From the NCBI RefSeq assembly GCF_013315695.1, contig NZ_CP054353.1: DNA of 64,000 nucleotides, one strand, 5' to 3'. The translations under genes were made by a program, and so were the position numbers. The stretch's first letter is position 1; the number at the start of each line of letters is the position of its first letter. This DNA comes from Escherichia coli (GTDB lineage: Bacteria; Pseudomonadota; Gammaproteobacteria; Enterobacterales; Enterobacteriaceae). The notes under the pieces are model-generated. The model was not told the origin of the DNA. It saw nothing but the letters and a program-made list of their open reading frames with translations, and searched no databases. Shown here one piece after another: positions 4,509 through 9,928 of this stretch.

Positions 4509-6671
4509 ATGGCCTTTATGCTAAGTCCTTTGCTCAAACGCTATACCTGGAACAGCGCCTGGCTGTATTACGCGCGTATTTTTATTGCGCTTTGTGGAAC
4601 CACAGCGTTTCCGTGGTGGCTGGGTGATGTAAAACTGACGATTCCGCTGACGCTGGGGATGGTGGCAGCGGCGCTGACCGATCTCGATGACCGACTGGCG
4701 GGACGTTTGCGTAACCTCATCATTACGCTGTTCTGCTTTTTTATCGCCTCGGCCTCAGTAGAACTGCTGTTTCCCTGGCCCTGGCTATTTGCGATTGGCT
4801 TAACGCTCTCAACCAGCGGCTTCATTTTGCTCGGCGGTCTGGGTCAACGCTATGCAACAATTGCCTTCGGTGCGTTACTGATCGCCATTTACACTATGTT
4901 GGGGACGTCACTGTATGAGCACTGGTATCAGCAGCCGATGTATCTGCTGGCCGGTGCCGTCTGGTACAACGTCCTGACACTTATTGGTCATCTACTGTTC
5001 CCGGTCCGCCCGCTGCAGGACAACCTGGCGCGTTGCTATGAACAACTGGCGCGTTACCTTGAGCTCAAGTCGCGCATGTTTGATCCTGATATTGAAGATG
5101 AAAGCCAGGCACCGTTGTACGATTTGGCTCTCGCCAACGGTCAGCTGATGGCGACATTGAATCAGACGAAACTCTCGCTGCTGACCCGCTTACGTGGCGA
5201 TCGTGGTCAACGGGGAACGCGTCGCACGCTGCATTATTACTTCGTCGCGCAGGATATTCACGAGCGTGCCAGCTCTTCTCATATTCAGTATCAAACATTG
5301 CGTGAACATTTTCGCCACAGCGACGTGCTGTTCCGTTTTCAGCGGCTGATGTCGATGCAGGGCCAGGCGTGCCAGCAACTGTCACGTTGTATTTTGTTGC
5401 GTCAGCCTTATCAACATGATCCGCATTTCGAGCGCGCTTTTACGCATATTGATGCTGCGCTGGAGCGGATGCGCGATAACGGCGCACCTGCCGATTTACT
5501 CAAAACACTGGGATTTTTGCTGAACAATTTACGCGCCATTGATGCCCAACTGGCAACAATTGAATCAGAACAGGCCCAGGCACTGCCCCATAATAATGAC
5601 GAAAATGAGCTCGCTGATGACAGCCCGCACGGATTGAGTGATATCTGGCTGCGTCTTAGCCGTCACTTCACGCCGGAATCCGCCCTCTTCCGTCATGCGG
5701 TAAGAATGTCGCTGGTGTTGTGCTTCGGCTACGCCATCATTCAGATAACCGGAATGCATCACGGGTATTGGATCTTGCTGACAAGTTTGTTTGTCTGCCA
5801 GCCAAACTATAACGCCACGCGCCACCGCCTGAAGTTAAGGATTATTGGGACGCTGGTCGGTATCGCCATTGGCATTCCTGTGCTGTGGTTTGTACCGTCA
5901 CTGGAAGGGCAACTGGTGCTACTGGTTATTACCGGCGTGCTCTTTTTTGCCTTCCGTAACGTGCAATACGCCCATGCAACGATGTTCATCACACTTTTGG
6001 TGCTACTTTGTTTTAACTTGCTGGGTGAAGGTTTTGAAGTGGCGTTACCTCGCGTAATCGATACGCTGATTGGTTGTGCCATTGCGTGGGCGGCGGTGAG
6101 CTACATCTGGCCTGACTGGAAGTTTCGCAATCTGCCGCGCATGCTCGAACGTGCCACCGAGGCCAACTGTCGCTATCTCGATGCCATACTGGAGCAATAC
6201 CATCAGGGGCGTGATAACCGTCTGGCGTATCGTATTGCCCGCCGCGATGCACACAACCGTGATGCCGAACTGGCGTCGGTGGTATCAAATATGTCCAGCG
6301 AGCCGAACGTTACCCCGCAAATTCGCGAGGCCGCGTTTCGGTTGCTGTGCCTTAACCATACGTTTACCAGCTATATCTCAGCCCTCGGTGCTCACCGGGA
6401 GCAGTTAACTAATCCTGAAATTCTGGCGTTTCTTGATGACGCAGTTTGCTATGTTGATGGCGCGTTACATCATCAACCTGCTGATGAAGAACGCGTCAAT
6501 CAGGCATTAGCTGGCCTGAAACAGCGGATGCAGCAACTTGAACCACGGGCAGACAGCAAAGAACCTCTGGTCGTACAACAAGTTGGGTTATTGATTGCAT
6601 TACTGCCAGAGATTGGTCGTCTGCAACGCCAGATTACTCAAGTTCCGCAGGAAACTCCTGTTTCGGCGTAA
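4509..6671 (+). CDS. yccS: Inner membrane protein YccS (putative efflux/FUSC-like family)
   Basis: 720-aa polytopic membrane ORF matching YccS; true start could be the ATG at 4518. Confidence 0.85.
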   Translation: MAFMLSPLLKRYTWNSAWLYYARIFIALCGTTAFPWWLGDVKLTIPLTLGMVAAALTDLDDRLAGRLRNLIITLFCFFIASASVELLFPWPWLFAIGLTLSTSGFILLGGLGQRYATIAFGALLIAIYTMLGTSLYEHWYQQPMYLLAGAVWYNVLTLIGHLLFPVRPLQDNLARCYEQLARYLELKSRMFDPDIEDESQAPLYDLALANGQLMATLNQTKLSLLTRLRGDRGQRGTRRTLHYYFVAQDIHERASSSHIQYQTLREHFRHSDVLFRFQRLMSMQGQACQQLSRCILLRQPYQHDPHFERAFTHIDAALERMRDNGAPADLLKTLGFLLNNLRAIDAQLATIESEQAQALPHNNDENELADDSPHGLSDIWLRLSRHFTPESALFRHAVRMSLVLCFGYAIIQITGMHHGYWILLTSLFVCQPNYNATRHRLKLRIIGTLVGIAIGIPVLWFVPSLEGQLVLLVITGVLFFAFRNVQYAHATMFITLLVLLCFNLLGEGFEVALPRVIDTLIGCAIAWAAVSYIWPDWKFRNLPRMLERATEANCRYLDAILEQYHQGRDNRLAYRIARRDAHNRDAELASVVSNMSSEPNVTPQIREAAFRLLCLNHTFTSYISALGAHREQLTNPEILAFLDDAVCYVDGALHHQPADEERVNQALAGLKQRMQQLEPRADSKEPLVVQQVGLLIALLPEIGRLQRQITQVPQETPVSA

Positions 6672-7263
6672 GAGAGTCAGCCCATTCTGCAAGCTCCTGG
6701 CGGCGTGCCACCGGGAGCGCAGCTTCATGAATGCCGATAATGGCCCCTTCAAGCATAAACAGAATCTTTTCTGTCACCAGACTGTTTTGCTGCCGCAGTC
6801 GCAACCAACACATTTTTGCCCCAAGTATACGTAACGCCCGTACATCCTTAATCCCCACCTCCCCGAGAATCGCTTCCAGATGAAAAGACATATTGGGCAA
6901 ATCTTTCAGTCTTTCCCGGGTATTGCGCGTGCTTTTCTCTTTCAGCGCTGCATCGAGAGAATATTTCGACAGACGCACCAGCTTCAGTTGATTTCGCCAT
7001 AGACTTTCATCAACTCGATAGTAATTGAGGGTAACGGATCGGCCACACTTTTTATATGTCAGCCAGACAGGCGGATGTTTTACACAGTACTGTGCACTTT
7101 GCTCACAAGCCCGAAGATACAACTCACCATCAGAAACCATCGCAAACACCGTGTCGTCAACGGTCAGGCTGTAACTGCCAAACAATGATCGGTATTCAAT
7201 TGTGCCCAACGTTGCCAGGTATTCTTGTGATTTATAGATCCGCTTATAGGAGAGGCTTTTCAT
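6634..7263 (-). CDS. sxy: Competence/CRP-S regulon activator Sxy (TfoX)
   Basis: 209-aa ORF matching E. coli Sxy/TfoX; 3' end overlaps yccS convergently. Confidence 0.9.
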   Translation of the reverse strand: MKSLSYKRIYKSQEYLATLGTIEYRSLFGSYSLTVDDTVFAMVSDGELYLRACEQSAQYCVKHPPVWLTYKKCGRSVTLNYYRVDESLWRNQLKLVRLSKYSLDAALKEKSTRNTRERLKDLPNMSFHLEAILGEVGIKDVRALRILGAKMCWLRLRQQNSLVTEKILFMLEGAIIGIHEAALPVARRQELAEWADSLTPKQEFPAELE

Positions 7264-7439
7264 AAAATTCCTTTTAAAATCATAACATAAAAGAATGATT
7301 CACATTAACGGATCCGTTAACTACGAAAATAGGCAACTTATTCTTAAGGGGCAAGATTAATTTATGTTTTCCCGCCACCAACGACAAAATTTGCGAGGCT
7401 CTTTCCGAAAATAGAGTTGATCTTTGTCGTCACTGGATG

Positions 7440-7459
7440 TACTGTACATTCATACAGTA
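7440..7459. promoter_or_regulatory. LexA operator (SOS box) of sulA
   Basis: tactgtacattcatacagta = CTGT-N8-ACAG palindrome 23 bp upstream of the sulA ATG. Confidence 0.85.
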
Positions 7460-7481: not shown

Positions 7482-7991
7482 ATGTACACTTCAGGCTATG
7501 CACATCGTTCTTCGTCGTTCTCATCCGCAGCAAGTAAAATTGCGCGTGTCTCTACGGAAAACACTACAGCCGGGCTTATCAGTGAAGTTGTCTATCGCGA
7601 AGATCAGCCCATGATGACGCAACTTCTACTGTTGCCATTGTTACAGCAACTCGGTCAGCAATCGCGCTGGCAACTCTGGTTAACACCGCAACAAAAACTG
7701 AGTCGCGAATGGGTTCAGGCATCTGGGCTACCCTTAACGAAAGTAATGCAGATTAACCAGCTCTCCCCCTGCCACACCGTGGAGTCAATGGTTCGCGCTT
7801 TACGCACGGGCAATTACAGCGTGGTGATCGGTTGGTTGGCAGATGATTTGACTGAAGAAGAGCATGCTGAACTTGTTGATGCGGCAAATGAAGGTAACGC
7901 TATGGGGTTTATTATGCGTCCGGTAAGTGCATCCTCTCACGCCACGAGACAACTTTCCGGGCTAAAAATTCACTCTAATTTGTATCATTAA
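7482..7991 (+). CDS. sulA: SOS cell-division inhibitor SulA
   Basis: 169 aa from ATG 7482 ([11 protein letters not shown]...); recognised SulA; LexA box upstream. Confidence 0.92.
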
Positions 7992-8347: not shown

Positions 8348-9400
8348 ATGAAAAAGACAGCTATCGCGATTGCAGTGGCACTGGCTGGTTTCGCTACCGT
8401 AGCGCAGGCCGCTCCGAAAGATAACACCTGGTACACTGGTGCTAAACTGGGCTGGTCCCAGTACCATGACACTGGTTTTATTCCTAACAATGGTCCGACC
8501 CACGAAAACCAACTGGGTGCAGGTGCTTTTGGTGGTTACCAGGTTAACCCGTATGTTGGCTTTGAAATGGGTTACGACTGGTTAGGTCGTATGCCGTACA
8601 AAGGCGACAACATCAACGGCGCATACAAAGCTCAGGGCGTTCAGCTGACCGCTAAACTGGGTTACCCAATCACTGACGATCTGGACATCTACACTCGTCT
8701 GGGTGGTATGGTATGGCGTGCAGACACCAAGGCTAACGTACCTGGTGGCGCATCTTTTAAAGACCACGACACCGGCGTTTCTCCGGTTTTCGCTGGCGGT
8801 GTTGAGTACGCGATCACTCCTGAAATCGCTACCCGTCTGGAATACCAGTGGACCAACAACATCGGTGACGCACACACCATCGGTACTCGTCCGGACAACG
8901 GCATGCTGAGCCTGGGTGTTTCCTACCGTTTCGGTCAGGGCGAAGCAGCTCCAGTAGTTGCTCCGGCTCCAGCTCCGGCACCGGAAGTACAGACCAAGCA
9001 CTTCACTCTGAAGTCTGACGTTCTGTTCACCTTCAACAAAGCAACCCTGAAACCGGAAGGTCAGGCTGCTCTGGATCAGCTGTACAGCCAGCTGAGCAAC
9101 CTGGATCCGAAAGACGGTTCCGTAGTTGTTCTGGGTTACACTGACCGCATCGGTTCTGACGCTTACAACCAGGGTCTGTCCGAGCGCCGTGCTCAGTCCG
9201 TTGTTGATTACCTGATCTCTAAAGGTATCCCGGCAGACAAAATCTCCGCACGTGGTATGGGCGAATCCAACCCGGTTACTGGCAACACCTGTGACAACGT
9301 GAAACAGCGTGCTGCACTGATCGACTGCCTGGCTCCGGATCGTCGCGTAGAGATCGAAGTTAAAGGCATCAAAGACGTTGTAACTCAGCCGCAGGCTTAA
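8348..9400 (+). CDS. ompA: Outer membrane protein A (non-K-12 loop allele)
   Basis: 350 aa from ATG 8348 ([21 protein letters not shown]...); barrel and OmpA-like C-terminal domain conserved; loop segments differ from K-12 sequence as I recall it. Confidence 0.95.
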
Positions 9401-9475: not shown

Positions 9476-9928
9476 TTATTCCTTACCCAGCAATGCCTGC
9501 AGATCCTGCTTCAGAGAAGACATTTTATTCGCGTATTTCTCTTTGTTTTCCGCATCTTCAATCAGCTGAACAATCGTTTCAGAAAGCGTTTTACCGCGAC
9601 GCTGCGCAAGACCAGCCAGACGTTGCCAGACAATAAATTCCAGATCGATCGATTTTTTGCGCGTATGCTGGTGTTCCGCATTAAAATGGCGCTTCCGTCT
9701 GGCCCGAATGGTCTGCTTCATGCGATTGACCAGTTCCGGATTCATATGCTTGTCAATCCAGCCATTTACCAGCACGGGTTCATTTTCCAGCGAGAGCAAC
9801 ACATCGACGGCTTCCTGGGCGGCACTGGCTTCTATGTAACGGGTGATTAACTCCCCTTCGCGATACTTCTTCACCAGATACTTCCATTTCCAACCGCTTT
9901 CAAGATTTTCAAGTTGTTGATATTTCAT
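9476..9928 (-). CDS. matP: Ter macrodomain organiser MatP
   Basis: 150-aa ORF matching MatP. Confidence 0.9.

Follow-up and report, generated by a model that had tools for sequence, protein, structure and literature searches.

The window, a stretch of 64,000 nucleotides of Escherichia coli DNA, carries at positions 7440-7459 what its sequence identifies as the known textbook LexA site of the cell-division inhibitor gene sulA, a real but ordinary element. We consider it very likely that this is a canonical, functional sulA SOS operator and that its T at box position 11 (T11), where C stands in K-12, is a common allele, probably the ancestral one, under which repression is most likely unchanged or very slightly tighter. 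Across complete E. coli genomes T11 is a common standing polymorphism, neither a private mutation nor a sequencing error, and the sulA operator as a whole is multi-allelic in this species.

The sulA operator and its promoter context

Direct reading of the window gives the letters TACTGTACATTCATACAGTA at 7440-7459, and tactgtacattcatacagta is located at exactly these coordinates on the + strand. The box lies in the sxy-sulA intergenic region of about 218-219 bp, within the gene order yccS-sxy-sulA-ompA-matP (Table 1), and the sulA start codon at 7482 follows 22 nt past the end of the box, while across 44 orthologues the gap between box and ATG is 20-21 nt. The first-pass annotation had named the element the sulA LexA box, which is borne out by the downstream ORF: it encodes SulA and is annotated as sulA in the identical RefSeq genomes.

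Table 1 Features of the sulA locus in the window, with the basis of each assignment.
Feature	Position	Strand	Basis
LexA operator (SOS box) of sulA, allele C8/T11, TACTGTACATTCATACAGTA	7440..7459	.	orthology to the K-12 box; sole consensus-like site in the window
Variant base T (K-12: C), box position 11, central part without LexA contact	7450	+	alignment and allele counts
Putative -35 hexamer TTGATC of the sulA promoter	7417..7422	+	conserved hexamer and spacing
Putative -10 hexamer TACTGT, the left half of the LexA box	7440..7445	+	spacing and cross-genus conservation
sulA coding sequence (SOS-induced cell division inhibitor, 169 aa)	7482..7991	+	ORF and RefSeq annotation of 100%-identical genomes
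yccS	4509-6671	+	ORF list and RefSeq annotation of 100%-identical genomes
sxy/tfoX	6634-7263	-	ORF list and RefSeq annotation of 100%-identical genomes
ompA	8348-9400	+	ORF list and RefSeq annotation of 100%-identical genomes
matP	9476-9928	-	ORF list and RefSeq annotation of 100%-identical genomes

The gammaproteobacterial LexA operator follows the consensus TACTG(TA)5CAGTA, and the sulA box differs from the 20-mer TACTGTATATATATACAGTA by three mismatches. No other site in the whole 64-kb window comes within three mismatches of this consensus, and 100 dinucleotide-preserving shuffles yielded 0 such sites. An SOS box requires two inverted CTG/CAG motifs exactly ten base pairs apart (PMC5999292), a spacing found here in CTGTACATTCATACAG (CTGT-N8-ACAG) at 7442-7457; the bare CTGT-N8-ACAG pattern is not significant alone, because 47 of the 100 shuffles contained it at least once. 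For a graded measure we used the heterology index (HI), calculated from a matrix of our own build on the LexA boxes of PMC3009722 Table 4, which is not the Lewis/Fernandez de Henestrosa matrix. Scanning every 20-mer of the window with the symmetrised matrix of 17 published boxes (sulA left out) gave an HI of 6.41 for the sulA site, inside the range of 1.7-11.7 spanned by the 17 training boxes, versus 14.37 for the runner-up. A second LexA site was not found in the window, where no other 20-mer had an HI below 14 and CTGT-N8-ACAG occurred a single time, at the sulA box. An Rfam search of the window likewise returned no regulatory RNA near the box, the sole family above its gathering score being a distant and ordinary PyrD leader (RF02373, 97.9 bits, window 23494-23567, - strand) upstream of pyrD.

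Alignment with E. coli K-12 substr. GM4792 gives TACTGTACATCCATACAGTA as the orthologous K-12 operator, located at the same locus and the same place relative to sulA and sharing 19/20 bases with the window's box. Inside the box, C to T at position 11 (window 7450) is the sole difference and leaves both CTGT/ACAG half-sites untouched, as the first-pass annotation had suspected. The K-12 sequence that it had given agrees with both the GM4792 alignment and PMC3009722 Table 4, and since the two operators are not identical, the one outcome it had named as refuting the variant does not apply. Outside the box, the upstream intergenic region holds three more SNPs (window/K-12): 7375 C/T, 7415 A/G, which sits 2 nt upstream of the putative -35 hexamer, and 7428 C/T, which falls inside the promoter spacer; the putative -35 and -10 hexamers themselves are the same in both strains. 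The sulA gene shows 6 nucleotide differences from K-12 and its product one substitution, S92N. The K-12 sulA (sfiA) allele is a measured LexA operator in a strongly UV-induced promoter (PMC5999292, PMC3009722), and it is for this allele that LexA binding and LexA/RecA-dependent induction are established (PMC5999292, PMC3009722, PMC9505508).

The box overlaps the putative -10 hexamer just upstream of sulA, a damage-inducible gene, and that hexamer is likely formed by the left box half itself. A simple sigma-70 promoter scan did not report the sulA promoter, because TACTGT fits TATAAT at just 3/6 positions, so the assignment rests on the arrangement TTGATC-17 nt-TACTGT, which was kept in 43/43 sulA loci of other genera holding upstream sequence, while the letters of the spacer diverge. 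From this geometry we infer that sulA transcription starts near A7452, which would place the variant base at about -2. In LexA-dependent bistable genes, a group that includes sulA, the SOS boxes overlap the transcription start site where it is known (PMC8072944).

On this arrangement, LexA would sit as a dimer on the 20-bp imperfect palindrome, one monomer per CTGT/ACAG half-site, and because the box overlaps the putative -10 hexamer and start site, bound LexA would exclude RNA polymerase. Upon DNA damage, RecA* would stimulate LexA self-cleavage, freeing the operator and leaving the sulA promoter active, and the SulA then made would block FtsZ polymerisation and ring formation. This block of FtsZ persists until Lon degrades SulA. 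Nothing suggests that the T11 allele works by a mechanism other than this one, which is established for K-12.

Operator alleles within E. coli and in related genera

Our sample comprised 5,426 complete E. coli genomes, 5,425 of which hold the region, the remaining one being without any match to it. Alleles were typed by megablast with box-centred 41-mers at word size 28, queries that are allele-specific because every 28-base seed must cover box positions 4-18 exactly. In this way 5,335 of the 5,425 genomes were typed, and about 90 were left untyped. The K-12 type, C8/C11, was found in 3,881 genomes (including O157:H7, O111 and K-12) and the window's box, C8/T11, in 843 (including O25b:H4-ST131 strains and Nissle), which gives the window's exact allele a share of about 16% among the complete genomes. 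Beyond these two there are at least three further alleles, namely T8/C11 (498 genomes), T8/T11 (42 genomes with K-12-like flanks, including E2348/69, and 68 with IAI39-like flanks) and T8/C11/T12 (3 genomes). Overall, T stands at position 11 in 953 of the 5,335 typed genomes (17.9%). The K-12-type sulA 41-mer was additionally found at 4 plasmid places, which are possibly reporter constructs or plasmid-borne chromosomal segments.

These counts also dispose of a sequencing or assembly error in the window as the source of the difference at position 11, an explanation that has nothing in its favour beyond the single-base size of the difference and that we rejected as having practically no chance of being correct. 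The identical 41-mer occurs in 843 independent complete genomes, and the 25-kb surrounding stretch is 100% identical in several independent assemblies, the first 25 kb of the window being fully identical to strains MSB1_4I, AF3 and MS 21-1. The element is a textbook one and hundreds of public genomes share this allele, so the variant carries little weight alone. Yet PsulA reporters and LexA-box matrices rest on the K-12 sequence, and 1,454 of the 5,335 typed genomes (about 28%) have another sulA operator.

The haplotype around the box was also compared with that of the nearest genomes. For window positions 1-25000, the phylogroup F strains IAI39 and CE10 are closest after the three identical genomes, at 99.3%; their sulA promoter haplotype is T8/T11 with the flanks CACCGGATG and ACCCACAGGGCT, unlike the window's, which matches that of ST131 and Nissle genomes. 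An F-like stretch of 25 kb with an ST131/Nissle-type sulA promoter suggests local mosaicism around sulA.

Beyond E. coli, we scanned one genome per species for CTGTANATNNATACAGTAACTCA, a pattern in which the flank AACTCA was obligatory and only box positions 1, 2, 8, 11 and 12 could vary; conservation of the other box positions in the matches is therefore uninformative, as it was imposed by the search. The scan returned 48 loci, 44 of them with a sulA homologue immediately downstream, and the other four (three Pseudomonas and Phaseolibacter) were excluded as not being sulA loci. No E. fergusonii, Salmonella or E. coli species representative was among the matches of this one-genome-per-species scan, so the outgroup set is incomplete with respect to E. 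fergusonii and Salmonella. The E. coli species representative was missed though both main E. coli alleles fit the pattern, and there may be gaps in the collection or in its indexing for this pattern.

Among the 44 orthologous operators of other Enterobacterales, position 8 is divided between C (23) and T (21), position 11 shows C (25), T (14), G (4) or A (1), and position 12 is C in 44/44. These counts point to weak constraint at position 11, where all four bases occur. The window's exact 20-mer was present in 9 of the 44 loci, comprising seven Rahnella, Citrobacter amalonaticus S646 and Enterobacter sp. JUb54, in each case at the same place upstream of sulA. However, the flanks and sulA coding sequences of these genomes are just 58-82% identical to the window, which indicates that the identity at position 11 with those genera is convergent or retained and does not reflect recent common descent.

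Closer to E. coli, E. albertii and three divergent non-coli Escherichia loci, whose sulA genes are 89-92% identical to the window's, have T at positions 8 and 11 in all cases, and the phylogroup F reference strains IAI39 and CE10 carry T11 as well. The presence of T11 in these lineages makes it the parsimonious ancestral state in Escherichia, so T is probably the older state at position 11 and the C of K-12 the derived one. This polarity is an argument from parsimony on few outgroups, and it weakens at greater depth because position 11 is homoplastic and most Citrobacter have C11.

Predicted consequences of the operator alleles

LexA contacts residues 14-18 of the operator half-site (crystal structure, as summarised in PMC5999292), and position 11, like its symmetry mate position 10, lies at the centre of the box and outside these contacted residues. 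The HI of the K-12 and window alleles was estimated with four versions of our matrix, a small one of 17-18 sites in which every position is taken to contribute independently of the others. With all 18 sites the values were 4.22 for K-12 and 4.22 for the window in the raw version and 5.91 and 5.27 after symmetrisation; with sulA left out they were 6.05 and 5.72 (raw) and 7.30 and 6.41 (symmetrised). The window allele is thus equal to K-12 or 0.3-0.9 units lower, and the effect of T11 on LexA predicted from these estimates is most likely no change or a marginally tighter operator. T11 would then probably be a near-neutral spacer polymorphism. A small effect is conceivable, since Culyba et al. 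(PMC5999292), who varied positions 14 and 15 only, observed that changing one operator position can shift the LexA off-rate over a wide range.

T11 might instead be a functional tuning allele, in which the A+T-richer central spacer slows LexA dissociation, an idea that we regard as improbable. Its physiological extension, a raised damage threshold or delayed SulA filamentation in the carriers, including ExPEC ST131 and the ST73-type strain Nissle, seems to us similarly doubtful. Consistent with tuning are the HI estimates, which lie 0.3-0.9 units nearer the consensus in 3/4 matrix versions, the character of sulA as a 'late', slowly dissociating promoter whose timing is set by the LexA off-rate (PMC5999292), and the distribution of the T11 allele, which is lineage-structured and not made up of scattered singletons. 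However, lineage structure is expected of every neutral SNP when a species is clonal, the raw HI is unchanged (4.22 vs 4.22), and position 11 both lies outside the contacted residues 14-18 and accommodates all four bases in orthologous operators, which argues for weak constraint. The near-neutral reading thus remains the one we prefer for position 11.

A functional effect of an SOS-box SNP does have a precedent in the yebG box of Salmonella Typhimurium, where ATCC 14028 and ST4/74 likewise differ by a natural single-base intraspecies polymorphism (PMC8072944). There the HI goes from 7.03 to 4.98, a shift of about 2 units, and allele swapping altered the fraction of ON cells (PMC8072944), whereas the estimated shift for the sulA position-11 SNP is 0-0.9 units. 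A second analogous case, the T-to-C change in the ydjM LexA site of E. coli/Shigella (PMC3444427), is likewise a lineage-associated LexA-box SNP that emerged from genome comparison; it concerns a different gene, and a link to pathogenicity was proposed in PMC3444427 without testing, while we claim none for sulA. Our literature search for a described sulA operator polymorphism gave only these two analogous cases, and the T-allele 20-mer had no match in the searchable literature, in which the K-12 20-mer does occur, in two papers.

The same operator carries a second polymorphism, C/T at box position 8 (window 7447); at least 611 of the complete E. coli genomes have a T8 allele (498 + 42 + 68 + 3). 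T occupies this position in 16/18 published LexA boxes, and replacing the C8 of K-12 by T8 lowers the HI estimate by 2.4-4.1 units, which makes the position-8 alleles better candidates for a regulatory difference than those at position 11; judged by these scores, the polymorphism at position 8 is probably the more consequential of the two. C and T at positions 8 and 11 occur in all four possible pairings, pointing to recurrent mutation or recombination. The alleles at positions 8, 11 and 12 each amount to a change of C to T in the central box, and T is the consensus base at 8 and 12. It is conceivable, if unlikely, that these several alleles make the sulA operator a tuning point, setting lineage-specific LexA off-rates and hence filamentation thresholds or timing. 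We are equally hesitant about reading the T11 of ST131/ST73-type strains as one step of such a tuning series, in which the position-8 alleles would be predicted to have the larger effect. If operator alleles do alter LexA off-rates, they would offer a natural series for testing operator strength against the timing of division arrest, with position 8 the likeliest place to find an effect.

T11 could also matter for the promoter rather than for LexA, by altering the choice of start site or the strength of the derepressed promoter. The box does overlap the putative -10 hexamer (7440-7445) and the start region, with the 17-nt spacing kept in 43/43 loci, and the adjacent position 12 is C in 44/44 orthologous operators despite the consensus T, suggesting that a constraint other than LexA binding acts next to position 11, such as a start context with a pyrimidine at -1 and a purine at +1. 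Against this, C, T, G and A all occur at position 11, which argues against importance for the promoter, and the start site near A7452 is itself putative. We therefore consider a promoter role of T11 very unlikely, and a near-neutral change within the LexA spacer is still the favoured interpretation. Position 12 itself (window 7451) was C in 44/44 orthologues though left free in the scan and though the LexA consensus has T, and T was found there in just 3 E. coli genomes. A promoter constraint, C(-1)A(+1) at the putative start, is a possible explanation of this C.

Other variants at and around the locus

Two further strains carry larger changes at the sulA promoter region. E. coli ZH142 (NZ_CM125651.1) has lost 5 bp between the direct repeats TGTAC/TGTAC at the place orthologous to window 7437-7446, which converts GGATGTACTGTACATCC to GGATGTACATCC and takes away the left CTGT half-site and the putative -10 hexamer. 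As judged from these letters, the deletion should abolish LexA binding and normal sulA promoter function. E. coli NH-21 (NZ_CP148034.1) has an IS1 insertion between sxy and sulA, upstream of the sulA promoter, at a place that corresponds to about window 7404. Downstream of sulA, the ompA gene of the window comprises 1,053 nt (350 aa) versus 1,041 nt (346 aa) in K-12, and the surface-loop regions differ, which looks like the known kind of OmpA allelic variation.
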